Shown one piece after another: positions 6,314 through 56,368 of a stretch of 64,000 nt of DNA; position 1 is the first letter of the stretch, and each line of letters opens with the position of its first letter. The translations under genes were made by a program, and so were the position numbers. The notes beneath the pieces were generated by a model that searched no databases, had not been told where the DNA came from, and worked only from the letters and a program-made list of their open reading frames with translations. This DNA is from Psammoneis japonica (taxonomy: Eukaryota), in NCBI GenBank assembly GCA_008632985.1, contig QPGO01000078.1, positions 186,001-250,000 on the forward strand, read 5' to 3'.

Positions 6314-6330
6314 GAGCAAGACTGTTAATC
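6314..6330 (-). promoter_or_regulatory. Putative primer-binding site complementary to a tRNA-Asn(GTT) anticodon arm
   Basis: Directly abuts the 5' LTR; plus strand GCAAGACTGTTAATC has the CT-GTT-AA anticodon-loop pattern. Confidence 0.5.
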
Positions 6331-17713: not shown

Positions 17714-20700
17714 ATGCCTGCACTTGAAACAATGGGGCCAAAAAGCCAGTCAAGTCCTTCGCGTCTGAAGAAGTTGAAGCAAAATGCATCGAGGCCGACG
17801 CCCCACCCCTTGAACAAGTGCACGAAAGAGGGTGAAGCGGAGCGACGTAGAAAGCAAAAGGAAATTGACGAAGCTGACAAATTCAAATGGAGGTGCGATC
17901 AACACAAGAAAAGCAAGAAGATTCGTGAAAAAGTCACAACTCGGGTTGACTTCGGAACGAAAACGTGCAAACGGTGTGTCACAGGGCCGGGTTGCAAGAA
18001 GGGTCACGACGACACGTGCCACAAGAATCCAAACACTTCAAATTACAAGCCACCAGAGAAAATTGTCATTCAAGTTCTGAAAGAGGTAGAGCCAGATTTC
18101 CTCATGGCACTGCCACAAGATTGCAGAAACAATCTCATCACGAGGAGCCTTTTGGAAAGATCTTTTTTCTCTTCGCCGGAGGGAAGTGCAGAAAGTGTGC
18201 AAGAAGCATTTTTCGATGCATCTGAGTCCTCAGTAGATTCTAATCCACCCAGTGACAACAACAATTCAGTTGGGGATGCTCTCAGCAGCGTTGAATCCAA
18301 GGATGCATTGAAGCCGTTGCTGCACAAGAAAATGACTGCGTCGCATCTAAAAAAAGCGACACCCGCCGTGATGTCGACGTGGAGCACAAGCAAGAAAGAG
18401 CAACTCGCTCAAGACAACATAAAAGTGCCGCTTCCAATTTTGGCATTGCTGGAATTCATTCACATGCAATGCCCAAGAGTTTGCACCGATTCCAATGGCG
18501 CCAAGAAGCTTGGTGGAGGTGAACAACGTATTTCTTGGTGCCGCGACCACTTTCCGCGTGGAAATGTTGCGTTCACGGCACCGTTGGCAGGTGGGAAAGA
18601 AAATGAAGTTCCCGACCCAATGTGTGAGTCCATTCAAGGCTCAACAACATATTTGACTCGGTGGGAACTGAACATGCCAGACTTGCCATTGAAGTGTTTT
18701 TCATGCAGCGACGGATTTCTGGAGCACACGAGGGTGGAGTGCGGCGGCACCAGGTTTGCAAGCAGTGCGACGCCCGTTTTCAGAATGAAAGGTCACACGG
18801 GTTGGGAGCATGGCATCACATGCAAGTGCTCTAATTGTGGAGAGCTTGTCAAGTCGTGTGATGGTAGACTGCTGCGTCATTCTCTACAAGACTGCGCATG
18901 TCGAAGCTTCCCAGTAGATCCCTTGTATTGCTCGAAGCCATCCTTCTTCTTGCTTCACGAAGAGGTGTCCTTTCTGCTGGAGGAGGCTGCTCTGACAGAA
19001 TCAAGTGCACAGTGGGTGTCACGAACGCTCTTCCGAAGTCAAAACCATCGGCACGAAGAACTGGAACTGTCACATTGCAGCTCTGACAAGAGTTGCGAGG
19101 ACAAACCTTTTCCAGACTTTCCATCAATTGAAGAGTGGCGAGGACAGTGTCCGCCATCAAGTGCTCAGTTGCCAGATCTTTGCGAAGCAGCCAACTCCTC
19201 CGATCTTACCACGTGTGGCGTGAGCGACGACGACCGTCACAAGAGAGAAATGCAGTCACACGGCTGCGAAACTTCTACAGCCTTCGATCACACCCACGCA
19301 ATGTTGAGCAACTACCCATCATCACTGGGCGCTCAAGCTTGTGCCACTCAGTCAACTGATGCGGGATTCATTACCTGGCTTGGACTTGTCGACTCCACCG
19401 CAATGTCAGACAGTGCCCACGGCATCGAGCAAACTGCAAGACGGCCAAACTTTAACCCGAAGCATGTGCACACGGATGCATGGCCCAATCTTGATCCATT
19501 CTTCAAGACAACACACGGATTTGCAACAATCGGTCGACTTGGCTTGTTCCATGCAATTCAGCGCGTCACCAAGTTCATGCGGAAAGATCACAAGGATTTC
19601 AACAAAGCTCTCCGCTCTTTCTTGAGCTGCCTGTACAGTCTGAACCAAGAGGATGAAGCAGCCGCAGTGGCAACACTACGAGACGGGACAATGAATGGCC
19701 GCATCCACCAGCCTGATGAGATCTCGGATTTGCAGCACAGCAAGAAGTGGATGGACCGCTGTGGGCAGCACATCCGAAAGATTCCTGTTCCAGGAGAGCT
19801 CGCGAGGATTAAGTTGAGGGACTGGTGGTGCCCATGCAAAGTGAGCAACAGTGATGGTGAGCCAGCAGGACAAGGAGAGCTGGACAATGGAAAAACCCTG
19901 TTCATGGAAGGAGCGAGACAAGCAGTGAGAGCGTTGACGGAAAAAGCTCAGCATCTGCCAGAGATTGTTGGTGACTGCTGCAAGAAACTCACCGCATCTG
20001 CCCGATCGAAACACAAACTACCGCGATGCATTTCTGAAAAGGGTGAGTCTTCATTGGAGAAGTTTCACCATCTGCTGGCTCATTTTGGAAACATGGGCAT
20101 GCGGCGAACGCTCGCCGACAGTTTGAACCTCCGCGGCACGTGTCGACACAATCTCAAGCTGTGGCACAAACTGTTCGGAAGAAATGCACCCGAGATCCCA
20201 AGCCATTTTCAAACTGAACCCATTCATTACAACCATCTCAAGTTGCTAGAGATCAACCGGAGGTCCGCCAAGCATGGATCCAAAGCACCGCGGCATGAGA
20301 ATCTACGAGATTGCCTGGAGTGCAGGGGCGAAGAGTTTTTGTTCGAGTGCCTTTTGTCGCAAAGAAAGAGACGAGCACAATGTCCACCCCATCCAACCAA
20401 CAGTCGCTGCCAATGCCCCAAATGTGCTGCAAATCCGATGCCTCTTCCTCACATCCAACGAGCCATTTCACGTGAGCAGTCGGCGGCATCTGCAGTGGCG
20501 CCAAATGAAACGGCACCTGTGAACAATGACACTGGTGACTTTGACGCTGCGTCATTCTCTGCAAGACTGCGCACGTCGAAGCTTCCCAGTGGATCCCTTG
20601 CATTGCTCGAAGCCATCCTTCTTCTTGCTTCACGAAGAGGTGTCCTTTCTGCTGGAGGAGGCCACTCTAACAGAATCAAGTGCACAGTGGGTGTCACGAA

Positions 20701-22796
20701 TGCTCTTCCGAAGTCAAAACCATCGGCACGAAGAACTGGAACTGTCATGTTACAGCTCTGACAAGAGTTGCGAGGACAAACCTTTTCCAGACTTTCCATC
20801 AATTGAAGAGTGGCGAGGACAGTGTCCGCCATCAAGTGCTCAGTTGCCAGATCTTTGCGAAGCAGCCAACTCCTCCGATCTTGCCGCGTGTGGTGTGAGC
20901 AATGACGACCGTCACAAGAGAGAAATGCAGTCATGTGGCTGCGAAACTTCTACAGCCTTCGATCGTGCCCACGCAATGTTGAGCAACTGCCCATCATCAC
21001 TGGGCGCTCAAGCTTGTGCCACTCAGTCAACTGATGCGGGATTCATTGCCTGGCTTGGACTTGTCGACTCTACCGCAATGTCAGACAGTGCCCACGGCAT
21101 CGAGCAAACTGCAAGACGGCCAAACTTTAACCCGAAGCATGTGCACACGGATGCATGGCCCAATCTTGATGCATTCTTCAAGACAACACACGGATTTGCA
21201 ATGATCGGTCAACTTGGCTCATTCCATGCAATTCAGCGCGTCACCAAGTTCATGCGGAAAGATCACAAGGATTTCAACAAAGCTCTCCGCTCTTTCTTGA
21301 GCTGCCTGTACAGTCTGAACCAAGAGGATGAAGCAGCCGCAGTGGCAACACTGCGAGACGGGACAATGAATGGCCGCATCCACCAGCCTGATGAGATCTC
21401 GGATTTGCAGCACAGCAAGAAGTGGATGGACCGCTGTGGGCAGTGCATCCGAAAGATTCCTGTTCCAGGAGAGCTCGCGAGGATTAAGTTGAGGGACTGG
21501 TGGTGCCCATGCAAAGTGAGCAACAGTGATGGTGAGCCAGCAGGACAAGGAGAGCTGGACAATGGAAAAACCCTGTTCATGGAAGGAGCGAGACAAGCAG
21601 TGAGAGCGTTGACGGAAAAAGCTCAGTGTCTGCCAGAGATTGTTGGCGACTGCTGCAAGAAACTCGCCGCATCTGCCCGATCGAAACACAAACTGCCGCG
21701 ACACATTTCTGAAAAGGGCGAGTCTTCATTGGAGAAGTTTCGCCATCTGCCAGCTCTTTTTGGAAACATGGGCATGCGGCGAACGCTCGCCGACAGTTTG
21801 AACCTCCGCGGCACGTGTCGTCACAATCTCAAGCTGTGGCACAAACCATTCGGAAGAAATGCACCCGAGATCCCAAGCCATTTTCAAACTGAACCCATTC
21901 ATTGCAACCATCTCAAGTTGCCAGAGATCAACCGGAGGTCCGCCAAGCATGGATCCAAAGCACCGCGGCATGAGAATCTACGAGATTGCCCGGAGTGCAG
22001 GGGCGAAGAGTTTTTGTCCGAGTGCCTTTTGTCACAAAGAAAGAGACGAGCACAACATCCACCCCATCCAACCAACAGTTGCTGCCAATGCCCCAAATGT
22101 GCTGCAAATCCGATGCCTCTTCCTCACATCCAACGAGCCATTTCACGTGAGCAGTCGGCGGCATCTGCAGTGGCGCCAAATGAAACGGCACCTGTGAACA
22201 ATGACACTGGTGACTTTGACGCTGCTGAGTTTGGTGTCGACTTTGATGAGCAAGAGTGTCATTCTGTGTTTGAAGACACTCCTCCTCAAGAGCAACTTCC
22301 CCAAGAAACACGAATGATCCGCGACTTCGCCGTGCAGGACGCCTTCCAAAGGCATCAAGAATTGAACTCCGCACCGCCTGCCCCAATCCTCCCCATGCCG
22401 GCACCAGCTCCACCATTGCTGCCTCTGCTGCCTGTTCCTGCAACAAATTTGCCAATGTCATTGCAGCAACCTTTGGGCCCACCTGCTGTTGCATCGTCGA
22501 TGCCATGTTCAACCTGCTGCCAACCCGTTTCTCTTGGGACAGCGAGTTTTGCAGCATCTGCTCCTGTGCTGCCATCCGCTGTCACTCCAGCTGCAAAGAG
22601 ACGAAAGGTCAAAGAAGAAGAATGCTGCTGTGAGGGAAGAAAAAATCATGTCGAAAATGGTCGTCGGGGGCGGGTCGCTCATGCCTTGTGGTGCAACCGA
22701 GGAAAGCAAGGCGTTCTTGGTGTCTTTTTGTTTTGTTCTTTTTTCCATTTGTGTTGGCACACATCACATTGCTGCTTCCCAGCGCAGATGCATTAA
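17714..22796 (+). pseudogene. Transposase copy 2, frameshifted by internal duplication, stop codon lost
   Basis: ORFs 17555..20761 and 20526..22796. The TAA of copy 1 (16437) is CAA at 22707, giving read-through. Confidence 0.75.
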
Positions 22797-24205
22797 TTCA
22801 GGATTAGGATCCAACACAGTGGCAACAAACATTTTGCACTTGTATGATTACACCGGTCCACCACACCAACCATTGCCGTGCCGCACCGACCAACATTAAC
22901 GGCACGGACAGCACGGACACCGAGGTCCCACAAAGCCGGCAGCCTGTCGCAGCCCCACAGCAGAAACAAAGGAATAGAAACAACAAAATTGAGAACACGA
23001 CAACAAAGAAACAGACCCATGACACTCGACACATTTCTATTGCCTTATATCAATGCTTTTGGAGTGCCCTCGTGGTGCTTGTGGTTGATTGCATTAAGCA
23101 ACACTGTCGGCCGAAAACAAAACAAAACACTGTCCAATTAAAAGGAATGGAAACAACAGAAATGTAGAAGGTGCCATCAAAGAAACAACCCCATCATACT
23201 CGATATATTCATATTACCTTGTCTTAATGATTTCGGTGCGTCCTCACAGTCCTTATGGTTCATTGTTAGCAGCAATCTTGTCGGCGGCAGAAAACAAAAC
23301 TCAAAACACACGCTCCATTTAAACACAATGGAAACAAAAGAAATTTAGGAGACACCAACAAAAAAATACAACCATCATACTCAACACAGTCTTTATACCT
23401 TATATCAATGCTGTTAACCCTCGTATCGTCACAGTGATGGTCGATTCATGAACGGAGCTAGTCGCCATTGTGCTGCGACGGTTCGAGGGTGGTACGGTAA
23501 GTGCGCGTGAGGATTTTTCCTACTGCATGCAGTGTCTTTTCTGTCTGTCCGTTAGCGAGTGGTCTTAAACGTTGCTGAGTCATAAATGGCTTGAAGACAA
23601 AATCATTCTTAAATGTTGCATCGTCATAATTGGGGATTGCTGAGTCATAATTCACTGAAGGCATGATGTGATTGGCTGAAAATACAGCGTACAAGAATGG
23701 GACAACGGTACGCTTCCAAGTTCTCCCTGCGAGCCTGTAGGGTCAAATTATGACCTAAGAGTTCTCGATATGCCAATCGACGTTAATTAATTACTTTTTA
23801 TAGCACTGCACAATTAGGTAGATCTTTAGGAACAATGTCTCATGCTTATGACTTATAGGCCATTAATAAATATGCAATGTTATGTTGTGGAGATCTCACA
23901 ACTAACAACACATTATAAATGTTAATTTTTATTTAAAGGTAAATTGAAAACCCCCATAAACATCGAAACTAACGAAGCTGCCATTCTTCGATTTCGGACA
24001 TTTTTCAATTCATCAAAAATGCGAACCCCTGCAAAAAGACAAATGCAAAACACGAAATACTGTGTACTGTGTACCGTACTAAAATTGGCAAACGATAAGA
24101 TCGATCATCAAGATAAGAGTGACACCAAGCCGAAGGACAAAAAATAGATTCAGGAATACCTATTCATCACGCACTCTCCACACCGCACGACCGTGGAACA
24201 AAGGA

Positions 24206-32457: not shown

Positions 32458-32606
32458 CTCTTTGACACGTTCTCCGAGCTGCCCTCCATCATTGCGGCGG
32501 CAACACTGAACACTGAGCCTTGCTCTAGAGTAGAGAGCTCTCTCTCTAGTAGCTAGAGCTAGTAGTAGTCGCTTGTTTTCACGATCGTTTCTTTTTAATT
32601 AATTAA

Positions 32607-35150
32607 GGTTCCGAATGGACCTGCAACCCGGATATACTCCATACAAAAATGCAGTAGCGCTACGTGGAGGGGAATGCGTTGGAATCTACACGAACATACC
32701 ACAGTTCTCAAAAATCATGAAAATCTCAGAATGCGTACGAATGACAATGGCGTTTGCAGCGCTGTGTCGACAGTGCTCCTTCACCTTCCACCCAATCTCA
32801 AGTGGTATTGGATGGACAACGCAGCGATGCATTCGATTCTGAAGCGTGGTGGCCATCCGTCACTCCCCCTTTGTGATGTGGAGAATGCAATGCGTGGGAA
32901 GCGTGATGCCACCGCGACGGAACGGGACCGATTCAACACCCTCGGTGCTCATCATACTTACTATAAGTTTGGATTTCGAGAAAATGGTTACAAATGTTAC
33001 AAAGAACAGCGTGATTCATTCGTCACCATTCCAAGGATTGTGCCAAACCACTTCATTCGGAACTGGACGCTGTTTCAAGATGCGCGCAACGCATTGGAGA
33101 ATGCCGGTTGCACTCGCGCCCCGGATAAAAAGAGTTTGGAGACGGAAGATACCGAATCCAAGACAAGTGCATCAAAGATCAGTGGCTCTAGTTTCAATCA
33201 TGATGTGGAGAAGGGTGGAAGCTCTCCTGAAACTCGGCACAACAGCGGCAGCATCGGTTCCAGTGCCAGCGCAGACGACAACAAAGAAAATTTCGCGTCA
33301 GACTCGTCATTTGACAACATGACCGGCTGCAAGAAGTCTAGCATCAAAATGGATGATAAGTGGATGAAAGATGCATTCAATCACAATCGAAGGTGCGGTC
33401 ATGATGTGAGCTTGGTGGCCAGAACTAATCTCTCACTCGGCTTGAAAGAAGTTTGGCGTTGCTCGTTTTGTCGGAAGGAAATGGTGCGGTGGCCGGCGGA
33501 ACAAGTGAAGCAACAATCAGGCCAACTTGTGTCAGAAGATTTAATTCTTGTTGTGTTGGCTTCCATTGATGCTGGAGTCTCCAGAGAGAAACTGCAGGAG
33601 CTTTGTGCAGGGTTTGGTGGGGTGTGCCCGCCGAAATCTGCAATCGACGAGCAATTCAAACGCATTGAGAAGGTTGGGCCAGCTGTGGTGAAGGAACAAC
33701 TGCTTCAGAATCGCAGAGAGCATGTGGAAGAAAGCAGGAAGCAGCGACATTATGAGGGTGACTTTGAATTTGCCGATCAAGACAGCAAGCATCACAGTTT
33801 CGCGACGGGACCGACAAACAACGATGGTGGCGGACCGATGCGATGGATCTGCCATCGAGTCAAAGGTGTGCTTCATTGCTTGGTCTGCACCAGCTCGGTG
33901 ACAGGCAAGCCACTTGCTGCAATTGCAGATCAAATCAGCTGTGGTGCTTGTTCCCGTGTTGTTGCCATTCATCTTAAAAACCATCCTGAAAAGCGACACG
34001 GCGACATTCGTCCCGGCAAGATTGATTTCTCGCATGATGGCTCGTGTTCTCGGAACTCGAAGTGGCCCCGGGGTGGCAGAAGAGCATGCCAACGTCAAAC
34101 TTGCAAGAGAGCCACTGTTGGACGATGACGGCACCTTCCGGTCTGATGATGTGGGCATTGTGCCCCGTGAGACAACTTCAGATGGGGACACAAGAAGCAT
34201 CGTTGCATTCATAAAAGAGCAGCGTGATGTGGTCGGAGATGCTGCTGAGGGATTTTTGCAGCAGCTGCCTGATGGTGGGCACATGACAAAGACGGTGAAA
34301 GGTGGCTGCTTCACATTGGCATCAAAGAACCCTGAGTTCAAAAAGGGTCTTTCGACTCCACGGATAGAGGCCATTGCATCGGATTATTCTCGACGCATGT
34401 CCCTGTGTCATCACGTGCTTCTGATTGTCGAGAATCGACAGCAACATGTCAGGCACAGCAAAGATGCACAAGAGACCATGGAACAAAAGTGCAAGAGACT
34501 TCTCTGGTTGTTTTCATTCAAGCACCACAAGACAAGGCAAGAGAAAGATGCTTGAATGGCCTCCAGTCAATTGTTCCTCACCACTGTGGAGACCATAGAT
34601 TGTGCGATTTGTGCAACTGCAAGCACCTTCAAGCAGAGCGACGAGTTCGTGTGAGAGCAGAACCACACGGTGTGCATGAACTGCCTCAGCCGTGCAAACT
34701 TGTCATTCAACCAGAGGGCAGATTTAGTCTCAACAGTTGCAAGAACCATGTTTGAACGCTGTGGGAACTTCTGTGACTCCCCTTGTTCCCGCCGCTGCAG
34801 GTGTGCCGTGTCATCGCCGGCATCATCATCACTTTCACAGAACCTGACAAAATCATGGCAAACAAGTGGGTGAGTGTTTGCATTCCAATGGACATAAAAT
34901 GAGCACATCACAAACGACCACACATGTCAAAAATGCAAACACTCATGGGTGTGGATTTTTTGCTTTGTCGTCCTGAGCCGCCATGGTCAAAACCACGATG
35001 AAGTGTCGTGCTGTTCACTTTTTATTTTGACACTTGCGAGGTCATTCTATCTTGACGTCATCCTCCAGCATTTTGTAACGAGAATTGGTCGCATGCAAGC
35101 ACGTGCACACAGTGCTGAGAGTTGGCCGGTTAGAAGGTCCGTTCGGAACC
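32607..35150 (+). mobile_element. Kolobok-like DNA transposon
   Basis: TIR GGTTCCGAA(T/C)GGACCT at 32607 and 35135-35150, flanked by TTAA (32603-32606) and TTGA (35151-35154). Transposase motifs NDG...TGKPL...CGAC...H..C..N, SDGDT and PDGGH. Confidence 0.85.
32674..34700 (+). pseudogene. Kolobok transposase, frameshifted and hypermutated
   Basis: ORFs 32674..34128 and 33914..34555. Tyr is present in the first ~110 aa and nearly absent afterwards. Confidence 0.75.
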
Positions 35151-35154
35151 TTGA

Positions 35155-35620
35155 CCCTTCAACCACCACTGCTTGAGGATGTGTGATGTGTCATGCAATT
35201 TTACAACAACACAATGAACACGGTGTGAAAATGTCATGTCGCGCAGAATCTACGTAAAGCATGCCAAGTGCATTTGCTCATTGGGAGCAAATCTCCACCG
35301 GCGGAGATTTGCTCCAAGGGTGTGGCATCATTGGTCTATTTGCGATGGCAATTCATGACAACCTGCATTGTCAAAGGTTGAGATTTAGTTCCTCTCTGTT
35401 CACAGATGCAGCTTGCAAAAAACCCAGTGTTAAAAGTCGACATTGAACTTTCTAAATCACAAAATGGGTTCCCTGAGATTTTTGGCGAGTGCGTGCTCCA
35501 AAACAAAATCGCGCAAATTTGACATTGTCCATGTCTGAGATTACTTCATTTGCTGTGTTTGTGACGTAAGGGAGCAAATCTCCACCCGTGGAGATTTGCT
35601 CAAGTCCGGTGGTTGAAGGG
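35155..35620. mobile_element. piggyBac-like non-autonomous element (MITE), 466 bp
   Basis: Perfect 13-bp TIR CCCTTCAACCACC...GGTGGTTGAAGGG with TTGA on both flanks (inferred mutated TTAA); two internal GAGCAAATCTCC hairpins. Confidence 0.8.
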
Positions 35621-38600
35621 TTGAGGTGTCTGTGGGGTTGGCAGTTGTTGTGGTGGGGAAACGGGTGGTGGAGGAGGGCGCAGCGCGCTGGGAGAGGGAG
35701 AGAAAAAGGGTTGGCCGAGGGTGCGGACAGATGGTCGTGAGGAGGAGTTGGTGATGGTGGGATGGCAGAGGAGGAAAGCTTGACATGCAGAGAGATGGTT
35801 GGAGAGAGCAAAGCCAAAATTGAGACTGAGGATTTGGGAAGCCCAGAGCAGGGGTGTTGCTGCATGACAGGAGGAGCCGAAGTGATCGGGTGAAAGTTGT
35901 TTCCAGGCCGTGTTGGACTGGGCGAGGAGGTTGGAAGGAGCCAAAAGGGAGTTGGTGCAGGCGGAGAAGGATGCTTGCGAGTCAGACAAAGAGGATGGGC
36001 TGGACCAGGGCGGTTTGGGAGGGAGGGGCGGGATGGAGGAAGAGGCAGTGGTGGAGGCACCAAAGAAAAAGACATGGAAGTGATGTCCAATGCCTTCGAG
36101 GTGGTCGAAGGCAAAAGGGAGGAGGAAGAGGCCTGCTTGGCCAATGGCATCAATGACGTCAGAGCCATGAGCAGAGGATGTAGAACGGCCGAGGAGCTTG
36201 TCCCGAGTGCTGCTGAGGTGAGCCTTGTTGAGCGGGTTTTCAGGGACAGGCAAACCAGGTGCAGGAGGCGGGGGAGCGGGCAGTGCGGTGATGTCAATTG
36301 CCAGGAATTGGTGGGTGGATGGGGTGTTTGGTGGTGTGGAGCCGGGAGCAAGTTGGACGCCAACATTGGCGGGGCATTTTGGAGGGTGGTCGGGTGGGAG
36401 TCCGGCAGGGTCGAGGTGGACTTGTTGGCGAGACTGGCAGAGACCTCACATGGGCCGAGGGTTTCGATGACAGTGCAGATGGTGTCAAGGATGTGGTTGG
36501 ACAGAGGGCCTTTGTGCATTTTGGAGCAGGCAAAGGCGTGATCGCCGCATGGGTTGGGGCGGGCGTGGCCGCATGGGCAGTTGTGTTGGGAGAGGGTGGA
36601 TGGGACAATGGGCAGGCGGAGCTTGCGTCGGAGGAGGATTGTGAAGAGGTGTGGCGGAAGGTGGTTGGAAGTGGGGGTGCGGGGTGGGGAGTGAAGGCAC
36701 AGGCTTGTGAGTGGGGACAACAAGGATGGGAGCACCAGTTGGATGGAAGGATCAGCGAGGAGTGGGGGAAGGGTGTTGTGCACATGATGGTGGAGGTGAA
36801 GGCGCTGTGAGAGACCGCGCAGGGTGTGGTGTTTGACAGCGTGTGGAAGGGAGGTGAAAGAGGAAGAATCAAGTTTGAGAAGGGTGGGAGTGCAGTGGCG
36901 GAAGATTTGGTAGAGGGAGAGAGTAGAGCAAGGGTTGGACCATGAACCAAGAGCAGTGGAGCAGCTTGAGGGAAGGTGGAAGATGGCGCCACCGGTGAGT
37001 GGGACACCATGTTTGGTGCAGCGGACAGATCGGAGGAGGGAGGTGATTAGAGCGGGGACGGCAGCTGCGGAGATGACTCGACATCCGATGCCGCCCAAGG
37101 AGATGGGCAGGGTGGCAATGAGTTTGGAGGTGGATGGGAATGGGTTGGCATGTTGGGTGAGGTGGGTGAGGAATCAGAGGGAGTGGCCGATGATTTGGTC
37201 GGTGAAGGGGGATGCCCATTGAAAGGGGGGTGGGAAGTCGTTGGAGTGCAGAAGATTGCAGCATGCGTCAGGGGACAGCAGGTGGGTGATGGAAGGGATG
37301 GAGCACTTGCGGAAGAGGGTGCTTTGTGTTTGTTTGTCGGTGAGGCGGACGGTGAGGCGATGAAGGTCGGTGGCAAAGGAGGTGGCCTTGTTGTGAAGGA
37401 AATCGAGGGCGAAAGCGGGTGAGCCAATGGGTTGACCGAGGAAGCGGGTGCCGGTGGTGATCTCGGGTGTGACATGGGGGCTGTTGTGGGGATTTAGGAA
37501 GGTCAAGGCTTCGGAGAGTGCGGCGGCATCGGCAGGTGGGAGGCGGTTGATGGGAGAAGAGCCGGCAATGGATGTGAGAATTTGAGTCTTGGAGGTGTTG
37601 AGCTTGATGCCAAATTGGGGGCCGCAGGTGGAGAGTTGTTTGAGGAACCAAGGGAGCTGGGAGAAGGGAAGGAAGATGTGGGTGTCATCAATGTACGAAG
37701 AGGCAGCAGATTTGGAATGGGGAGGGAGTCGATGACATGGTTCGTCGTTGATGGGGTGGAATGCACGAGCCAAAACAAGGCAGGAAAAGGCAGGGCTGAG
37801 GGGGCAGCCTTGAGCAAATCCCTCGGGTTGAGAGAAGGAGGACCATTGCAAGCAGTGGTCACGGCACCAGCAAGTGTCAGGGTCTTGGTGGAGCAAGTCG
37901 AAGAAAGGTGTGAGAGGGCGGTGCTCGTCGGAGTTGTCAAGGGTGTGGCGACAGGCGTCACGGGAGCATTCGTTGAAGCAATTGGACAGGTCAAGGAGGA
38001 GGAGAGCTTTGGTTGGCGTGGAGTCTGGTTGAAAGAATCATTCAATGTTGGCCCAGTCGAGACCTCCTTTGATGCCGACTCCGAACTGGCCAGAGAGCAG
38101 GAGGTTGGCAGCGAAGGTGGCGGCAAAAAGGAACATGATGAGGGTGCCGACGATTCTGCAAAGGGCTGTTCTGACGCCGATGGGTCGAAGCTTGGAAAGG
38201 TTGGATGAGTCTTTGTGGAGAGCAAGGAAGCAGTTGGAAGAAAAGACAGGTTTGATGGATGCAGGGACATCCGCTGCAAGAATGAGATCGAGCAGATGTT
38301 TGAAGGTGAGCAAGCAGGGGCAGGAAGTGGATGTTGGCGTGGAACGGCGGTGGAGGGCGCAGGCCTTGAACAGGTCGGTGGAATCGGCAAAGGCGCCGGG
38401 TGCTTTGCCTGGTTGACATTTGGCGAGGGCTTTGCGGAGATCGTCGGTGGTGCAGTGCAGGGGGGAGGAAGCAGATCGTTGGTGTTGGGTGGAGGGGGGG
38501 GAAGGCAGCGGTGGGTGTTCCCAGGGTGGATAAAGTTGCTTGACAAGTTCCATGCGTTCGGGGGTGAGAGAGGCAACGGGAAGGGAGGAGGTGGCCCGGG

Positions 38601-40002
38601 CACAGGCGGCATGAAGGTTGTTGACGTTGGCGGCAATTTGGGCGGAGTGGGCGCAGGATGTGTTGTCAAAGTCGGGAGGTTCGTCAGACATGTCTGGGAT
38701 GGGTGTTGAGCGAGATTGGTCACAGAGGGCATGGATGGAACCATCATGGAAGAGGAAAAGACGTTGTGTGATGGTGGTGGAGAGAGGGATGTTGGAGTTC
38801 TTGGGGCTGGGCAGAGGATGAGAGATTCAAAGAGGAAGAGGAGCTTGAAGAAAGGGTCGGAGGCCGTTTGCCAAGAAGGGGGTGGGTCGTCAGCGGGGTC
38901 GAAAGGCTTGGAGGAGTCGACAGTCCATTGGATGAGGTGATGGAGGGTGAGAAGGACCTGGAGGCGAGAGGAAGGGGGGAGTTTGTGCCAGATGGAGGCA
39001 CAGAAGGGCGGGGGCGACAGGGGCAGTGAGTGGAGCCACTGAAGGGAGGCTGTCCAATCAGCAAGCTCTTGGCGTGGGTGGGAGGATGCAACGAGCTGAA
39101 CATTGGCAGTTGTGCGGGGTTGAAAATGGATGTTAGAAATGTGGGTGTGCAAACGTGTGTCACGGAGGCATGTCTTGGTGGTTCGTTGGCAATGTCGGCA
39201 TGGGTGTGGGTCATGGAGCTCGAAAAAAGAGTCGGGGATGGTGCGGAGGCTGCGGTGTTTGTGCACAGAAGAGAGATGCATGCACAGGAGCTTGGGTGCT
39301 TGAGGCGGAGGAGTGTTGGGTGGGAGGGAGAAGGAGCAGCCCTCGAAGGGGCAGGAGCAGTTGGCAACCCCTGGCGGGGCACGGGTGCTGATGGGCTCCA
39401 TTGCTGGAGGGTGGGGCGAAGTGTGCTGGGGTCTTGATTGGTGTCGGCAGCCTGTTGGGTGAGTGTGGACCACTCGGCGAGGTGTGTGGGAGCAAAGGTG
39501 TGGACCCATTGGTCGAAGACATGGAGAAGCTCGAGGTCGTTGAGAGCACTCGATGTCCATGTCGGGCAGGTCGGGGTGTGATGTGCGTTCCGTGGGCATG
39601 GACGGGGCGGTGCGTGCCAAGGTGGGAGTGTCAGTGGCGAAAGTGTCGGGGTCCATGGCAGTGGTTTCGGAGGAAAACGTGGAGCCGTCGAGGTCGGGAG
39701 GGTGTGAGCGTTTCTTGCGTTGTTGAGAGGGGGCGTGGGGGTGCTGACGCATGTCGGTGTGGTTGGGGACGGTGGCGTGGGTTGCCAGGAGGCTTCGAGG
39801 AAGGAGAGGGCTGTTTCGGATGGGGTGTCTTGAGAAGGTTGAGAGGTTGCTTGGGCAAAGGACGTGGATGTTCGGGCAGGGGAGGGAGGGGGGCATCGGG
39901 AAGGGAGGTCCTTGAGGAGGTGTTTGGGGATGTTGGGACAGAGGTGGAGGGGGGCGTCAGTGATGTCCACGACAAACGGGGTGGCAAAAAAAAGGAGCTT
40001 GT

Positions 40003-40727
40003 GATGCGTTCCAGCCCCAGGTGGGACTCCGTGTGACATTGGGCCCGCAGAATTCTACGTGCGAGCTCCGCATTACGAGAATTTAATTGATGGACACATT
40101 TGTCTTCAACGACATGTTCCAGGTCTAGGGGACTCGNNNNNNNNNNNNNNNNNNNNNNNNNNNNNNNNNNNNNNNNNNNNNNNNNNNNNNNNNNNNNNNN
40201 NNNNNNNNNNNNNNNNNNNNNNNNNNNNNNNNNNNNNNNNNNNNNNNNNNNNNNNNNNNNNNNNNNNNNNNNNNNNNNNNNNNNNNNNNNNNNNNNNNNN
40301 NNNNNNNNNNNNNNNNNNNNNNNNNNNNNNNNNNNNNNNNNNNNNNNNNNNNNNNNNNNNNNNNNNNNNNNNNNNNNNNNNNNNNNNNNNNNNNNNNNNN
40401 NNNNNNNNNNNNNNNNNNNNNNNNNNNNNNNNNNNNNNNNNNNNNNNNNNNNNNNNNNNNNNNNNNNNNNNNNNNNNNNNNNNNNNNNNNNNNNNNNNNN
40501 NNNNNNNNNNNNNNNNNNNNNNNNNNNNNNNNNNNNNNNNNNNNNNNNNNNNNNNNNNNNNNNATGTCAAAAGTTGTTGGACGGATGCTCAACAAGTGCA
40601 CCGTAAAATGACACAAAACACAGAAAAAATCACGCAGAAATCTACGTGCGTGACATACGATGTGATTCAAAAAACTGTCAATGTCACAGTTCAGCAGTGC
40701 GAGGTCCCACCTGACCTGGAACACGTC
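40003..40727. mobile_element. TIR element (ends GAYRYRTTCCAG...CAGGTGGGA) inserted in the CRE element, spanning the gap
   Basis: Imperfect inverted termini at 40003 and 40727 with TTGT on both flanks; related termini at 40111, 42007 and 48970. Confidence 0.55.
40137..40563. other. Assembly gap (N run)
   Basis: 427 N characters. Confidence 1.
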
Positions 40728-43639
40728 TTGTGTCAGACCAGGGTGTCACTGTGAGAGAAAAAAACAGGGATGATGCCAAAAAGGTCAGGGGTGGTGAGAA
40801 GTTTGTCGCAGTTCTTGGCTTGGCGTTTGTTGATGGCTTGCAGGCGCATGGCGATGGGAAGGATTTTGGGAAAGGAAGGGAAGGGGACAACTGAAAAGGA
40901 AAGGCGAGGACGTGTGTGATTGGAGGCGGCGTGTTGGAAGGGTTGACGACGGACAGAAAGGAGGTCCACATTTCGGGCGTGGAGGTGGTGAGGAAGCAAA
41001 CGTCAGACTGGGGGATCTGGCGGTTTGGGCGGAGAAAGTTGGGAAGTGGGAGGGGCGGACGCCGATGTGATCAAGGAAGGTGCCACACTCAGAGAAAAAA
41101 GAAAGGGTGGGGTCTGAGGGGTTGGCAGGTGAAAGGGATTTGACATGAGTGTGCAGTTGTTGGAGAAGAAATTCGCAGGTGCGTCGAGATTGACCGCAGG
41201 TTTTGGGGTTGATGCCGGCGAGGATGCCACGGGCTTGTTCAGCAAAGGAGTTGCAAGCAGGGATGAGAAAGGTGGCACAGCGAGTCCAGGGGTTGGGAGA
41301 TGCGGGGGTGTCTGTGGCATCCGAAGGAAGGAAGTCAGGGGAGGTGGAGGAGGCGGAGTGGTGCTTGAATTGTGCAGGAGGGTGAAGGTGCCAATTTTGC
41401 ATGGCGAAGCGGAGAACTTGGTCATGGAAAGGGAGGAAATTGAGGGGTTTGTGGGAGGAGACGGGAGCAAAGGTCAGTTCAAAACAGGAGGCCCATTGAT
41501 TGTGGCAGGGGCGGGAGCGGCGCTTGGTTGCGGAAAAGGTGCAACAAATGTCGATGGCGCGCGAGTGCGAACGCAGCAAGAAATTTGCAGCACATGCACC
41601 CACAATTCACAAACGACAAGATTGAACGGACAATCTTGCTCGTCATGACTGTCATTCATGCCGCAAGCCAGAGATCACTCCATTGATTGGAGGGATGAAA
41701 ATTTGCTGCAAGAGAAATGTTGAGTGTGGGAAGAAGCAAGGCACAATTGCGTTTGAGGTTCACACTGTCCACGGGAGCAGCAGAGCCCTCACAACAAGTT
41801 GCTTGCTGGGCTGAAATGAGCAGAAGAAGCACTCTTTGTTGAGCAGGAAATTGACACACCACTTGCCTTGGGACAGCACAGTTTTTTCAAGGAAGATGTG
41901 GTGGTTGAAGTTGTGGTTCTTTGGCTTCATGCAACTCTGTCTCACAAAAACAAACAAGGGTGTCGCGCGTGTCAAGCCTTTTCAAGCCGTTTGGCAAAAC
42001 CGCAAAGACGTGTTCCAGCCCCAGGTGATGCGCTGAATGACAATCTGTTTTGAACACAATTTGTGTGAACTTTGTGCATTGAGGCTGCTCATCAAAGTGC
42101 TTGTGCAGTCTGGCTCTTTTGCACTCGATCAGAGTGCGGGCAGTCAAACAATTTTTTCATGGGTGTTCAAGTCTTCACGACACATGTGCCACAAAACTTT
42201 CATGCAGAAACAACGCTGACTGTACATCCACACTCATGCCACAGAAATTTTTGTGCAAGCAGATTGACGCTGCAAAATGTGCGCACAAATCTTTTGTGTT
42301 GGCCTTCAAACAGCAACAGCATGTGAATCTTCAAACATTTTTGCGAAAATCATCCGTTGTGTTGCAACTCGTTTGTTGCAATGAAAAAACATTGACTGCA
42401 CAAAAACAACAATGTTGCGACACTGACACGAGTCTTGTCAGTGTTGCGGGGCATTTGCACTTGTACAAATCCATGCCTTTGGTGGCAAAAGCTTGTTCGC
42501 AAGTCAGAGGCTGCACAAAAATCATGTGAATGTCATTTTTGTGCACATTTTGGTTCACATGCGGCTGGAACACATCCAAAACAAGGGCTGGGTTGGGTTG
42601 TTTGAAGCAGCAATGCAGAGAACAACACCACATCTGCTTGCCATGTTCACATGAAGATGGTGCACACAACAAAACAGGGCAGAAAATGGAGCTGCTCTGC
42701 AAGCAACATCAGGCCGTTGGAAGGAAGTGGCCTCGAGCAAGGTGCTGTTTGCCTGCTCCGGCTCAATGCTTCCACAAAGGTCAGCCTCTTGGTTTGTTGT
42801 TTTTGGTCAATGGCACTGCATTGCTCTGTTCACTTGCTGGGTGGGGGCAGGCAGCACACAGGGAAAAAGAGAAATTGCAAGCTGAGCTTTGGCCTTCACA
42901 GGTGCCAGAAAAACTGCTCTCTTTCGTGGCCTCAGAAACCAATCACACAACAACTGTTGGCTGCGGCACAAGCCACAAGAAACCAGATCTCAAGCCATTC
43001 GAGCTCTGGCAGGCTAAGAGAAGCAGTGAGAGTGGGTGGTGCTGGTGCCAAGCAAAAAGCGGTTGGGAGAATTGAAAAGACTTGCTGAAAATTGGGTTTC
43101 GTCAGTCACCAAAATGTGCCCAGTTGCAATGACTGAATTTTTTGAAATCGTCAGTTGTCAGAGCTGCAGAACAAGAGCAAAGTCATGAAACATTGAAACA
43201 TTGGGGTTTCCAAACACCAGTTGGGGCACATGCTCAACTGTTGTGCACTGCATGTCTGTCTGAACACGACGTGAACTCCTCACGCACGCGCACTGCTGGC
43301 AGAGGCAGTTTCCCTCTGACAATGACAAAACACAAACAACCAAAATAATTTGAACGACATAAAACATTCGCTTTCCACTGCTCACTCCGACATCACAACA
43401 TGCACTTGACTTCGTTCAGCTCGTCAGGAGCTTTCCATCAACACGCAGCACAATGTGCTGCGTACAGAGAGTGCACCAGTCACAAGCAAGAGAAGGGAAC
43501 AAGCGACGGAGGGCAATCGTCGGGCGATTGGCACCGCAATTACAGGTCTGCATTGAATGGTAAATAGAGTTCATGCAAGCAATGCCATTGCTTCGCGATG
43601 CAACGCCTTGCCGGGAAGCATGCGTCATTGTCTCGAGAA

Positions 43640-46600
43640 TGCAAGGTTAAATGTAATTGATGCAGGCTGTGCATCCATGAACAACAAACAAAAAATGGAA
43701 GACACCAAAGGTGACACAGTCGAAAGCAACTCTTGGCGCTGAATCACTGTTCCATGCAATTGTTTCCAAAAGCATTGCAACAGCAAGAGCAGCACAAGCA
43801 ATCCACAGAATCGTTGAGACAGTTTGAGGAGAGGATGTCAATCAAGTTCTCTCGCATGCAAAATGTTTCACTGAAGTCATTGGCAAAAGCATTGCCATGA
43901 ACGCAGAGCTCCTCTGCACGAAATGACACATGTGCAAAAGCGTGAGATGTTGCAGGAACACAAACACCAGAATTCCAGCATCAGTTGGCCACATTCCCAA
44001 CGGTTGCCTGCCGAGATTCTTGAGATTCGCCACAACAGAAGGGAATGATCCACTGAGACCACAAAGCTGAATGCCCAGTGAGGAGAGACCAGCGCAGCCT
44101 CCAAGCTCGGTCGGCACTGTCCCACTTAAGTTGTTTTGTCCCAAATCAAGGCTGCTGAGCTTTCCAAGGTGTCCAAGCTCCGTCGGAATTGGGCCTGTGA
44201 ACCCAGCATCGTTGAGCCAAATTAATGCAGCGCTCTCAAGGTTCCCCAACGTAGATGGGATGGCACCAGCAAACGAATTTTCATTCAGCTTTATCTCTTT
44301 GAGCTGCAAGAAACTGCCGACAGCCTCAGGAAGACTTCCCGACAACTCATTCGCTACGAAATTAATGAACCTCAATGAAGCTGGATTCGGTCGAGGTGAA
44401 GAAGCTCTCGAGTGCGCCGTCCAGTTGATTCTCCGCAAACAACACAGCCTCTAGCTTTTCCGAAACAAAAGGAGGAATCTCCCCTGTCAAATCATTTCCG
44501 TTCAAATCAACTGCCCTCAACGAAGGCAGGGACCCAACCGACGGAGGAATCGTGCCACTCAAGGAGTTGCCACAGAGATTGAGCCAATCCAGCTCCAGCA
44601 GATTTCCAATTTCAGATGGCAGAGGGCCGGAGAACTCATTGTCGAAAATTTCCAAGTGAGCAAGTTTGCGAAGACTGCCTGCAGAAGAAGGCATTTTTTG
44701 AACGAGATTGTTTGACGAAATGTCCAATTCCTCCACATGGACGAAATTTCCAATTGTTTCAGGAAGGACCCCCGATAGCTGGTTGTTCTTGAAACGAATC
44801 CGCACGATCGTCTCCGAGGACGACGAGCCGAAAAACTCGTCAAGAGAGCCAGCAAGGTTGTTTCCCTTCACCCAGACCTCCGACACGCGGTCGCCAGTGA
44901 AAGGAGGCATGTGGCCAGAAAGACGATTCCCTTGAATGTCAATGCCAACAAGGATGGCAAGGCAGCAATTGCTCTGGGGATTGTTCCTGTCAACTTGTGT
45001 TGATGAGATCGAGTTGCTCTAGCCGTGTGAGGCTGCCAAGAGAAAGAGGCAGTTCTCCGGTGAACTCGTTGTCATTGAGATTCAACACACGCAATTCGGG
45101 ACTCCCGGAAAAGGAAGGGACATTGCCAACGAAGCCATTCGATGACAGGTCAAGAGACAGCAGATTGCTCAAGTCTCCGATAGATTCTGGTAGCTTGCCA
45201 TCCAGTTGGCAACCCTTGCATGTAAAGGAAGACAGAGACTTTCCAAAAACGGATGGCAATGACCCCGAAATTTGATTTCCGTCGAGCCACAACGATCGAA
45301 GACTCTGGATTCGAAGTGGCGACGCCGGCAGCGACCCAGTCATTGAGTTGAAATCGGCATCGAAAATCTCAAGTTTTATGAGGCCACCAAATGCTTGAGG
45401 GATGTGCCATGAGATTGTTGCTCTTTGCCTCAATGGACTTCAGCTGTGATGGGACGCTTGTTTCAAGAGGGATCGTGCCGCGCAAGCCATTGTGAGCTGT
45501 GGAAAGTTTGATCATTTGTCAGCAATCTTTGTTAGAAACACCAAGGTTTGCAACGCCGGACATTGCATTTCAAAGACTTGCGCAAACTGATTTTTTCAAT
45601 GGCGTTGCCAGCGCAAAAAACGCCGTTGTTTCCATCGTTCCACCCACGTGCATTTTCGCTCGAAAGAAATGCGCAGTCATCATCCCACGTCATGCCTTCC
45701 GTTGCATGGTGCAGCAAGAGCAACATTCTTGAATTTCCTTTGCGGTGGTTTCGATGGAGAGGCTGGCTGGATCTTCGGCGGCAAGCCAATTCAGCGCAAT
45801 TTCTGTGGCGTTCCGTCCTCCAACAGCGCTTCTCCAGACAAAGGAATGAGTTTTTGAGAAAGATGCTGGAGAAGCGTCGGATCCTCAATGCACGTGCATT
45901 GGTCAACGACGTCCCACAAGTCAGCCCTCAACGCATTGCATTCCGATGAATCTGACGGAACATGCACCATGTGCACATTCCATTCGGGTGTGATTTGTTG
46001 TCAACACGAAGCTGGGGCATCTCCAAGGGGACAGACGCATTCATGCATGTCGCACAAGTTACGTTCGCACTCAGGAGATTTGGCATGGGGGCAACCACAG
46101 TGTCGCCAAGCCTGAGCTTGTCCCTGCAAACAAGCTTCACTGGCGACATTGAGCTGCCCCAGTGTCTCGTTGAAGTCCGCGCAGGTAACACCATCTTCTC
46201 CTAGAACAAGGTTGTGTAGATCCACTGGAGAAAACCCATCTTCACACAACGTGCAACTGCTTTTGATCGGATCAGGATCTGGATCGGGATCTGGATCAGG
46301 ATCGGAATCAGACGGAAGAAGGGTGACAACAAGACTAACAACAATCGCAGCCATTGCAGAAGTCCCATCAGGGCCATCCATTTCCTCCGCCTGCTGCAGC
46401 ATGAGGTCGCATTGTCGTCAGAATTTTCGTTCACCACAAGCTCGGCTGGCTCGGCTTGCTCCATGATCTGTTTCTGAACTTGAGGTGCAATTTCATCTCT
46501 TTCTTCATGGACTCGAGCTTGCACCTGGGCTTCAAGATCCTCTTCTCCAGGAACGACCTCCGCCGCTGCAGCCAATCCTTCATCGCCATTGGTGCAGAGA

Positions 46601-47399: not shown

Positions 47400-50300
47400 T
47401 GAGAGCTCGCCCTTCGAGGGAGGATTGGGAATGGCGCTGCTGTACGAGAGCCAATCAGAATTCAGCATTTGGGATTTCCACTTGGGGGAGACCCTCGGAA
47501 AGTCGAGGACTTTCCGACTGATTAATTGACACTTTTTTGGAAAATCTGACGCAATCACTTGGGGACGAGGAGGTTGAGACAACTCTCCAAAAGCAGACAC
47601 AAGAGTCAGAATGATGCGGAGACCGACTGTCATCTTCCTTTCGCGCCACGGAAAATCACAACAACACAGACTTCTCACGCGATGAGAAAAATTCTCTCAC
47701 AAAAAAAACCCACGAGAGAGAAAAGTACAATCTCTGCTGGTGCTTCGATGATGACGGACGTAACGGAAGAATCTGCTCCAACAAAAGAGGCTGAAGAGCG
47801 GCAGCTGCATCCTTTCTTTGGAAACATGGGCACTCAATCCCAGAAACGCAAAGGCTCCATCAAAACGAGCAAAAGCCAAGCGTGCACACGCCAGAAGCGG
47901 ACGCATCAGAGCGATTTTAGTGGGCGCAAGGTGGCAAGAGTAGACGATGGAACGAAGAAATGCAAGAGATGTGAGAGAGGTCCCACATGTCATCATGGCC
48001 ATGATCCCACATGCAAATTTTCAAAAAGGCACTCGCAAGCGAACGTCACCAAAGCCACCATGGATGCAGAGCGACGCGACAAAGAGCTGCACGAAACAAA
48101 CAACACGATTCCGGCTGCCCCAGTTGAGGGAGTTTTGACCACACGAGACCATTTTGGAACACAGAGACCTGAAGCTCGCGTCACATTGCCTCCTCCAGGT
48201 GTTTCCAATGTTTGCAAGCCGGTGAATTCGGGGGTGGCTGGTGCTGCAGGCCCCGTGGAGTGCACGGGTGATGCTTGCAAGGCGGCCGCCATTACAAAAT
48301 TTTCGGTTGAGACTTTGAAACAAGAGATTCGAGCGAGAGCAAAAAAATGTGAGAACTCCGAGGAGAGGACGAAGTGCCCGGCTGCAGCAAGTGCTCTCAT
48401 CAGCCATCTGTTGGACTCTGTCAAGCCAGATTCGAGCAAGGCAGCAACAAGCATCCTGCCAAAGAGACAGCAGTCAAGAAGGTAGATGTTGTCATTGCTG
48501 GGTGTGTTTTGTGCATGAGTTTTTGATTCACTGTTTCATTTCAACGTTGCCGATTCCTGCACTCCAACAGCATCAACAACCTTTGTTTTTAGCCGGGTTC
48601 GCAAGAGTTGCAGCAGTCGCAACAACAGCAGCAGTCACAAGAGTTGCAGCAGTGGTTGTAAGAGCTGAAGCAGCCATCGTTCTTGCATGCCCTGTGGAAC
48701 ACGCTGTCAATGACTGAAGTCAGAAACAATGCCACAGAGATGAGCTCTGGGACAAAAGCAACGTTTGCAATGCAACAGAACCACGACCAGCTGCTCCAAC
48801 ACTGTAGACTCCCATGCTCCTGCACAACTGATCCAGTGCCACCTGCTCCCTGTGCCACCCAGCTGCAAAACTTTGACAATCCAAACCACCTTTGAGGGCA
48901 GGTGAACCCTGTCGCAACGGAGATTCGGGTCTGCGGCGGTTGAAGGCACTCCCGTCCTTGGAAGTGCCAGACGCGTTCCAGACGCAGGTGGGAATCCGTG
49001 TGACATTGGGCCCGTAGACTTCTGCGTGCGAGCTCCACAGCAAAATCATGCGGCAATTAAAATGTCAATGATTGCCAACAGAAAATGAGGCAATTTTGCG
49101 AACGCACAAACTCGCCCATAATTGAAGTGCATCATTTTTTACTTGGCCAGTTACATTCTTCAGACATTGAAGAATGCAACTGGCGCATTGTTGTTTCTAT
49201 AAATTCGTCACACGAGACTTTGAAACAAGAGATTCGAGCGAGAGTAAAAAAATACGAGAACTCCGAGGAGAGGACGAAGTGCCCGGCTGCAGCAAGTGCT
49301 CTCATCAGCTGTCTGTTGGACTCTATCAAGCCCAGATTCGAGCAAGGCAGCAACAAGTATCCTGCCCAAAGAGACAGCAGTCAAGAAGGTAGATGTTATC
49401 ATTGCTAGGTATATTTTATGCATGAGTTTTTGATTCACTATTTTATTTCAACGCTGCCGATTCCTGCACTCCAACAGCATCAACAACCTTTGTTTTTAGC
49501 CGGGTTCGCAAGAGTTGCAGCAGTCGCAACAACAGCAGTAGTCACAAGAGTTGCAGCAGTGGTTGTAAGAGCTGAAGCAGCCGTCGTTCTTGCGTGCCCT
49601 ATGGAACACGCTGTTAATGACTGAAGTCAGAAACAATGCCACAGAGATGAGCTCTAGGACAAAAGTAACGTTTGCAATGCAACAGAACCACGACCAGCTG
49701 CTCCAACACCGTAGACTCCCATGCTCCTGCACAACTGATCCAGTGCCACCTGCTCCCTGTGCCACCCAGCTGCAAAACTTTAACAATCCAAACCACCTTT
49801 GAGGGCAGGTGAACCCCATCGCAACGGAGATTCGGGTCTGCGGCGGTTGAAGGCACTCCCGTCCTTGGAAGTACCAGTCAACGCCTTACCGGGGAGCAAC
49901 CCCTTGGCTCTCGTCGGCCGTCTCAATGTTCAGAGGTGGGGCCACATGAATATTATTGCAGAAAAAAATTACCGAGGCGCTGCTGCAGTCAGCAACCTCG
50001 GCAGTGGCCCGTGTTATTTAAAGACGAGGGCAACCTCGTCTGCCGCTTATACGCGGACTTTTCCAGCCAAAGTGGTAGATTGTAGATAAAAAAATGACAC
50101 AAACCGCACCCACAATCAATGTATGGCCATCAATCTCTTCAAGTAGCGTGTCAATGGCACCTGAGGCAGCGCCGCAAGCAGCGATACTGCAAAAATCCTG
50201 AAACGCCACCCCGATGACTAGCAAACCCTCATTGACGACTGGAGAAGAGTCGACTGGAACCACAACGATTGCAGTGCAAAACATCAGCGTACGAGACGCT

Positions 50301-56327: not shown

Positions 56328-56368
<41 letters not shown>

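Follow-up and report, generated by a model that had tools for sequence, protein, structure and literature searches.

The 64-kb stretch of DNA analyzed here (the window; all coordinates refer to its full length) harbors two transposons that stand back to back and adjoin the 3′ end of an antisense long interspersed nuclear element (LINE), a dead Kolobok-type DNA transposon and a piggyBac-like miniature inverted-repeat transposable element (MITE), with the flanking tetramers TTAA, TTGA and TTGA from left to right. Very probably, both are TTAA-inserting elements, and a domain-wise hypermutation of TpA subsequently turned the inner TTAA duplications into TTGA. According to this scenario, the two cut-and-paste transposons would have landed at the same TTAA within a (TTAA)n tract by the LINE 3′ end, in either order. 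Hypermutation of the DNA, acting on a domain and not on a repeat family, would then have converted the A:T pair of TpA into G:C, with the strand deciding between TG and CA. Besides the LINE and the MITE, 2.1 kb on the right side of the Kolobok element would belong to the domain, which would fade about 400 bp short of the left end of this element. In this way, both inner TTAA duplications would have had their TA converted into TG, and the outer TTAA, lying beyond the domain, would have survived.

Stacked elements and their flanks

The left edge of the locus is a (TTAA)3 tract at 32595–32606 with TA intact at positions 32596, 32600 and 32604. Its last unit, an intact TTAA (32603–32606), represents the left target-site duplication (TSD) of the Kolobok-type element. 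The latter is a copy of 2,544 bp on the forward strand (32607–35150) with 5′-GG..CC-3′ ends, recognized by transposase homology and by terminal inverted repeats (TIRs) of 15 bp at 32607–32621 (+) and 35136–35150 (–). These TIRs, found in the repeat search as well as in the end-word search, match at 14/15 bases and read GGTTCCGAATGGACC and the reverse complement of GGTCCGTTCGGAACC, with TG versus CG as the sole mismatch. The adjoining TTGA (35151–35154) doubles as right TSD of the Kolobok element and left TSD of the MITE, which spans 466 bp (35155–35620), has 5′-CCC..GGG-3′ ends, is devoid of a long open reading frame (ORF) and belongs to a high-copy family, as deduced from its ends, repeats and word depth. 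Its 13-bp terminal repeats, located by end-word search at 35155–35167 (+) and 35608–35620 (–), form a perfect inverted end, CCCTTCAACCACC, and are followed by the right TSD, again TTGA (35621–35624). The order TTAA/Kolobok/TTGA/MITE/TTGA given in a preliminary description of this DNA agrees with these observations to the base.

An inverted-repeat search of the window recovered the same arms for both elements, and the exact end words of both have no further occurrence in it. The Kolobok end pattern alone, allowing 2–3 mismatches, is not above chance (2 found versus 2.03 expected). When scanning the window for a TTAA/TTGA/TCAA pair enclosing inverted ends matched at 12/13 bases or better and 80–4000 bp apart, exactly two elements were obtained, the Kolobok-type element and the MITE, while the same scan on 40 first-order shuffles gave a mean of 0.025 (1 match in 40 shuffles). 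Once both elements and one duplication each are taken out, the LINE 3′ end abuts the (TTAA)n tract; hence, the TTAA closest to the LINE served as the insertion site of both transposons.

The transposase of the Kolobok-type element persists as a pseudogene at 32746–34692 (+). Of 5,856 candidates in a large protein search with the Kolobok ORF, 2 proteins matched at E ≤ 0.001, with an 821-aa protein (P0001; E 3.3e-51, 33% identity) ranking first; P0001 carries Pfam family PF20700 and has 524 homologues at E ≤ 1e-3 in a representative library. By tblastn of P0001, three pieces at 32746–34059, 34145–34411 and 34516–34692 were found in frames 2, 3 and 2, respectively, hence with two frame breaks, and homology, interrupted by in-frame TGA codons, may extend as far as about 34870. 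The 509-aa stop-to-stop ORF reaches 25.7 bits with PF20700 ("Mutator-like transposase," E 6.9e-6), which is below the cut-off of 26.5 bits. Of the columns conserved in P0001 relatives, all Asp (13/13), Cys (11/11) and His (12/12) are kept in the window transposase, and the pieces aligned to P0001 contain NNDGGG, SDGDTRS and PHHCGDHRLCDLCNC. The Glu of the NSCEN motif in P0001, here assumed to be the last catalytic residue, is replaced by Lys in the window copy, as read by eye against P0001.

As described in the accessible part of the source, Kolobok elements show TTAA duplications, 5′-RR..YY-3′ ends (R, purine; Y, pyrimidine) and a C/DxxH motif after the second Asp, usually possess a zinc finger before the last Glu and are known from diatoms among many groups (PMC9587614). 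The window element shares the RR..YY ends (GG...CC), the TTAA flank and a CxxH motif followed by a Cys cluster, and its relatives occur in Cnidaria, sponges, molluscs and trichomonads. From the taxa of the PF20700 clusters (Cnidaria, Porifera, Mollusca, and Parabasalia) and the association of some of them with THAP, both in agreement with the published Kolobok range, we infer that PF20700 equals Kolobok. Accordingly, the earlier assignment to this superfamily holds, given the ends, the homology of the transposase to the PF20700 family and the CxxH motif with Cys cluster. In contrast to a typical member, the window copy is dead, with two frame breaks, in-frame stops and Lys in place of Glu, and has one TTGA flank, so that left and right flanks would agree only on the assumption of one change from TA to TG. 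The 3′ part of the element contains a perfect hairpin (34871–34945) with 14-bp arms, a 47-nt loop and TGGG on both sides.

A CCC start and a GGG end are the hallmark of piggyBac termini. The MITE possesses both within its perfect 13-bp ends and, in addition, an internal palindrome at 35285–35315 and a subterminal palindrome of the same sequence family at 35571–35601, both found by repeat search; folding via the ends and the two palindromes gives z = –4.5. A short terminal repeat plus palindromic subterminal repeats is likewise what the accessible part of the literature source describes for piggyBac ends, with excision proceeding via a TTAA hairpin step (PMC5861402). The MITE thus resembles piggyBac-like MITEs in its CCC..GGG ends, 13-bp terminal repeat, asymmetric palindromic subterminal repeats and high copy number, and this architecture bears out the label it had been given before. 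It deviates from them in its flanks, as this copy reads TTGA on both sides instead of the TTAA duplication. A Pfam scan of 76 ORFs of the window (14 + 62) did not reveal a piggyBac domain.

In one sequencing study, the summed word depth, which is not a copy number, amounts to 4,800–8,000 over 35250–35591 of the MITE versus 62 in the unique flank. Regarding other MITE copies, 10 contigs diverge after GGG+T into a consensus starting with CAA and 10 contigs diverge after GGG+TT into one starting with AA, which is suggestive only of TCAA and TTAA flanks, the overall consensus agreement being just 0.45–0.49. The left 100 bp of the MITE (35155–35249) have a summed word depth about 7-fold lower than the rest (1,100 versus 4,800–8,000), and most family members may share only the right part. 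A metagenome scan with the 14-base MITE end gave at least 118 loci, with none alike beyond the word itself among the matches listed, and a scan of viral contigs gave no match to the MITE ends. With the Kolobok end as a 16-base word, 20 single matches were obtained in the viral contigs, 4 of them giving BLAST alignments of 18–19 nt and 0/20 having a TTAA-like flank. In an Rfam scan of the window, no family reached its gathering score.

TA-depleted domains and polarity of the change

TA was tabulated in 500-bp bins, 128 over the window, with depletion defined as an observed/expected ratio below 0.3. This applies to 80 bins, with 42 bins at 0.4 or higher, 4 in between and 2 containing N. Depleted DNA accounts for 40 of 62 kb, ratios going down to 0.01–0.2, and the TA density is 6.5 per kb in depleted versus 41 per kb in normal bins. 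TTAA is about 3.3-fold rarer (0.85 versus 2.81 per kb). TG and CA show observed/expected values of 1.2–2.1 in TA-depleted intervals of 1 kb and of 1.3–1.7 in the depleted parts of the Kolobok/MITE/LINE locus. Depleted domains contain the LINE reverse transcriptase, the Kolobok-type element, the MITE, repeat arrays and ORFs with leucine-rich repeats (LRR).

Left of the Kolobok-type element lies an ordinary gene region, with a TA observed/expected ratio of 0.57 in the neighboring genes. A gradient is then observed across both transposons: the first 393 bp of the Kolobok-type element (32607–32999) have 15 TA and a ratio of 0.59, the remainder (33000–35150) 19 TA and a ratio of 0.14, the MITE 9 TA and a ratio of 0.25, and the LINE at 35625–40136 only 12 TA in 4,512 bp, corresponding to 0.06. 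The drop from 0.59 to 0.14 places the left border of the domain inside the Kolobok copy, approximately at 33000 as estimated from the TA counts on either side. In line with this, solely the outer, gene-facing site is still TTAA, as had been noticed before, and it is situated in TA-normal sequence, whereas both TTGA are found in TA-depleted sequence.

The polarity of the change can be observed in pairs of neighboring direct repeats, 96% alike and separated by a few hundred up to 3,000 bp, of which only one copy is TA-depleted. When comparing the repeat at 48309–48970 (depleted) with that at 49214–49877 (normal), 18/27 differences are TG/CA versus TA and none is reversed, with 4 versus 22 TA. 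Likewise, the repeat at 3163–3438 differs from that at 6331–6606 by TG/CA versus TA in 9/10 cases, none reversed, with 7 versus 16 TA. Taken together, 27/37 differences in these two border-straddling pairs are TA versus TG/CA, all in one direction. As the TA-rich copies are at the normal background TA level, the TA-poor state is derived. A process converting CA to TA, as in repeat-induced point mutation (RIP), would lift TA above the background, which the TA-rich copies do not exceed, again indicating that TA-poor is the derived state. Counting from the less depleted copy, 53/76 TA sites in three paired repeats (48.3/49.2, 3.1/6.3 and 16.6/22.9 kb) are now TG/CA and 23 are kept; among the TTAA sites in these pairs, 6/9 are mutated in the depleted copy. 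The process is TA-specific, produces transitions only, is limited to domains and acted later than insertion or duplication. Moreover, it treats 96%-identical neighbors differently and ends inside one element.

The same direction emerges from Kolobok copies in contigs of one sequencing study, aligned at 80% likeness or more. Among the 40 rows listed of 621, the window has TG/CA where other contigs have TA in 16 cases, and the reverse was found once. The former cases make up 14/22 of the listed rows at or right of 33049 and 2/18 of those left of it, and at 10/11 of the listed rows from 34113 on, TA is present in every covering contig.

In the preliminary description, the TTGA duplications had been regarded as direct proof of the mutation direction. 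That TTAA became TTGA via TA to TG fits the local domain as well as the independent polarity tests and, thus, the duplications are a valid polarity marker. The term proof, however, is overstated, as only two sites are concerned, perhaps changed in one event, and the direction is better demonstrated by the paralogues and by the Bigelowiella natans lines referred to below. The duplications serve as corroboration only, with the paralogue evidence being the stronger one.

With regard to sequence context, the mutated fractions in the three paired repeats are 6/6 for ATAT, 6/6 for ATAG, 10/11 for ATAC, 4/4 for GTAC, 6/9 for TTAA and 0/7 for CTAA, all of them small numbers. ATAT makes up 0.4% of the surviving TA in depleted bins versus 8.1% in normal bins. 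A context rule beyond TpA is possible.

Competing explanations and related systems

Several points weigh against insertion at TTAA followed by domain-wise hypermutation. Only two sites are involved, and both have changed on the same strand, for which the prior is 1 in 4 if the events were independent. TTAA is not a favored context, 30% of its normal density being left in depleted bins versus 16% for all TA, and with 9 TA kept in the MITE the domain is not saturated there. Out of five conserved Tyr of the transposase, 3 are kept and 2 are replaced by Ile and Ser, neither being a change of the TA type. A majority polarization with three copies, all in a depleted domain, resulted in 11 TA losses versus 18 apparent gains; this outcome is ambiguous, as the procedure mis-polarizes changes common to two sister copies and TA is about 20-fold rarer than TG+CA. 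Besides, the Kolobok copy comparison comes from one study, from which the assembly itself may originate, GTAA and not TTAA follows the Kolobok-like end of one contig, and the evidence on the canonical target of these two particular families is indirect. As to the frequency of TTAA loss, the mutated fraction in the pairs and the remaining density give each inner TTAA a chance of about two in three, so that finding both hit is unremarkable. Adjacent TA changes in general lie on the same strand in 23/38 cases at distances of up to 25 bp versus 13/30 farther apart, a strand coordination which is not significant (permutation p = 0.13).

An unlikely alternative would manage with one mutation, the right TTAA of the Kolobok-type element having already been TTGA when the MITE inserted off-target and duplicated it. 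The identity of the MITE-flanking tetramers is compatible with this course of events, and the weaker TA depletion of the MITE compared to the adjoining Kolobok sequence (0.25 versus 0.14) would fit a later arrival in an already mutated domain. However, this requires an insertion at a site that is not TTAA and lacks the central TA, while piggyBac off-target sites are rare and usually retain TA. Other MITE copies are, moreover, apparently flanked by TTAA or TCAA, and among the 10 loose-end rows listed of 142, a well-supported one at 35624/35625 is not present, so that few copies seem to be TTGA-flanked. Considering the 6/9 mutated TTAA in the paired repeats, two independent events are not improbable in the first place.

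It is quite improbable that the MITE is a TA-duplicating, Tc1/mariner-like element with ends starting from ACCC, both TA duplications having become TG; in this case, the direction of the change would hold and the piggyBac/TTAA label would be wrong. As TTAA is palindromic, the inverted repeat indeed reads through it, giving arms of 20 nt at 35148–35167/35608–35627 that are 90% complementary, and duplications of 4 bp and 2 bp are inseparable by sequence alone. Nevertheless, the CCC..GGG termini, the 13-bp terminal repeat and the palindromic subterminal repeats fit piggyBac ends, and the loose-end consensi of other copies go on with A after the variable dinucleotide (T/CAA, TT/AA), fitting a four-base TTAA.

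Highly improbable is that both families truly target TTGA or TTRA, leaving the flanks unmutated. Although the identical direct TTGA on either side of the MITE could be seen in this way, the Kolobok flanks differ (TTAA versus TTGA) and, therefore, one of them must have changed. In addition, Kolobok and piggyBac are described as TTAA-specific, both TTGA lie inside the depleted domain and TTAA outside, and TTAA or TCAA seems to flank other MITE copies. That an artefact of assembly or base calling underlies both the TA-poor domains and TTGA can practically be dismissed despite the fact that one study alone contains the stretch (0.42 share of words) and is perhaps the assembly source, as the signal is domain-wise over 40 of 62 kb (TA observed/expected 0.01–0.2) with matching TG/CA excess, distinguishes 96%-identical repeats within a few hundred bp of each other and has the same signature as seen in Illumina mutation-accumulation lines of another organism.

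In a full-text literature search, a TpA-to-TpG/CpA process was found described once, in a 2026 preprint on B. natans. According to its accessible part, 231/302 new single-nucleotide mutations in a mutation accumulation experiment fell into two integrated viral regions, where 230/231 were A>G or T>C, with all those transitions on TpA, resulting in TpG/CpA (10.64898/2026.01.13.699255, bioRxiv 2026). An insert of a nucleocytoplasmic large DNA virus (NCLDV) and a virophage insert were mutated de novo, 124 TpA-poor, CpA+TpG-rich clusters exist genome-wide, TpA-poor genes are enriched in DDE and reverse-transcriptase domains, and enzymatic adenine deamination in DNA has been proposed, with an ADAT2-like deaminase (10.64898/2026.01.13.699255). 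Hence, the direction has already been experimentally proven in that species, and the duplications in the window corroborate it and are not new in kind. In both cases, TpA is changed to TpG/CpA, and foreign DNA is affected in a locally confined manner, clusters becoming poor in TpA and rich in CpA+TpG in the long term. They differ in the targets, with viral inserts in B. natans and DNA transposons, repeat arrays and a LINE in the window, as well as in extent, with nearly two thirds of the window depleted (40 of 62 kb) compared to 124 clusters genome-wide. In the accessible text of the preprint, TTAA, target sites and piggyBac are not mentioned (10.64898/2026.01.13.699255).

The host genes of the window are long uninterrupted ORFs, for example, a 662-aa sulfatase ORF that is 99% covered by a 645-aa relative, its best protein match being just 54% identical. 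These intron-free ORFs contrast with a mean of 8 introns per gene in B. natans, which is also the richest in (AC)n repeats among the rhizarians compared, as far as the accessible part of the source goes (PMC13746701). An (AC)n repeat was not found within the 64-kb window. Although a B. natans annotation is public, the protein itself was also missing among the matches to the sulfatase ORF. Together with the large depleted share of the window, these points make B. natans an improbable source, albeit each of them falls short of being decisive.

Two further systems invite comparison. As stated in the accessible part of the B. natans preprint, ADAR likewise prefers a U or T preceding the edited A (10.64898/2026.01.13.699255). 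Editing of the ADAR/APOBEC type resembles the present process in its deaminase-like transition signature with 5′ neighbor preference and differs from it in that we observe a fixed DNA change here in cut-and-paste elements, which lack an RNA intermediate. Fungal RIP, like the present process, is a dinucleotide-specific, transitions-only hypermutation of repeated or foreign DNA. RIP converts CpA to TpA, thereby enriching TA, and strikes both copies of a duplication. In the window, the polarity is opposite, TA being depleted and not enriched, and one copy alone of each 96%-identical neighboring pair is mutated; TA depletion and this single-copy effect do not fit fungal RIP.

As cut-and-paste elements do not pass through an RNA stage, the process likely acts on DNA. 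Its chemistry is probably adenine deamination in DNA, by analogy to the hypothesis put forward in the B. natans preprint. Domain borders between copies 96% alike argue against targeting by homology, and guidance would rather be positional, either via chromatin or by spreading from the LINE. Compared to the preprint, the locus possibly adds as new aspects transposon targets of all classes, borders cutting single copies, an about threefold erosion of TTAA and perhaps a second organism.

Tentatively, and with chances for this reading as a whole that we would put slightly short of even, the window might derive from an organism other than B. natans, and TpA-directed A:T to G:C hypermutation might then represent a wider eukaryotic genome defense to which, in this genome, the bulk of transposon DNA is subject irrespective of class (LINE, repeat arrays, Kolobok, and MITE). 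Its targets would be chromatin-like domains, with borders cutting single copies and running between 96%-identical neighbors, and it would not be homology-guided; it would follow a context rule, hitting ATAT, ATAC and ATAG almost always and TTAA in about two of three cases while sparing CTAA; and it would erode TTAA/TA excision and landing sites as a side effect. If the genome is indeed that of another lineage, the process is no curiosity of one species. Target-site duplications start with a known sequence and, therefore, serve as built-in clocks of post-insertion mutation, and the sharp borders inside the Kolobok-type element and between neighboring repeats lend themselves to testing how the process is guided. 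A loss of TTAA/TA excision and landing sites is the suggested consequence. For the MITE, whose ends are intact and which has lost both TTAA of the hairpin step, hindered excision is plausible from its sequence. For the Kolobok-type element, immobilization by TTAA loss is moot, as its transposase is already broken.

The antisense LINE and other TA-poor sequences

The non-LTR retrotransposon to the right of the MITE is encoded on the reverse strand (35625 to approximately 42000), is almost TA-free as determined by TA counts and has a G-rich forward strand; a gap of N at 40137–40563 lies inside it. It was identified by its reverse transcriptase at 37177–38037 (–; RVT_1, E 3.3e-11), which has 34 homologues at E ≤ 1e-5 (best E 2.9e-63) and in which the conserved Tyr columns read His and Cys (2/2), in favor of the polarity given above. 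The forward strand of the LINE has 44% G and 15% C, corresponding to a GC skew of about +0.5, and in the reverse transcriptase, read on its sense strand, C takes up 60% and G 8% of third codon positions. TpA editing alone is too little to account for this G excess, which might be an inherent property of this LINE family or the result of a second process specific to one strand.

In the depleted domains, both strands carry very long ORFs that overlap (35455–37173, 37506–39956 and many others). As TA loss deletes TAA and TAG stop codons, long ORFs in these domains are no evidence of genes. The LRR ORFs, found in three frames at 43845–45439 (–), lie within a TA-poor domain (TA observed/expected about 0.1); hence, depletion is not confined to recognizable transposons. 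A module array at 12854–23713 consists of units of 1.4–1.7 kb in the order A-B-C-A′-B′-B″-C″ that are 96–97% alike. It is TA-poor all along except for the last 700 bp, and its ORFs of 757–1,173 aa gave no Pfam match.

TA-poor domains at 13–23 kb and 33–49 kb mostly retain CG at observed/expected values of 0.6–0.9 (0.40 in 42001–43000). By contrast, the stretches at 1–3000, 7001–9000, 54001–58000 and 60001–62000 are both TA-poor and nearly CG-free (0.02–0.34), with TG/CA at 1.4–2.1, and seem to have also undergone a second process, from CpG to TpG/CpA. A methyladenine DNA glycosylase gene at 11942–12670 (–; PF03352, E 3.1e-38) adjoins a TA-poor domain, a proximity which is probably coincidental.

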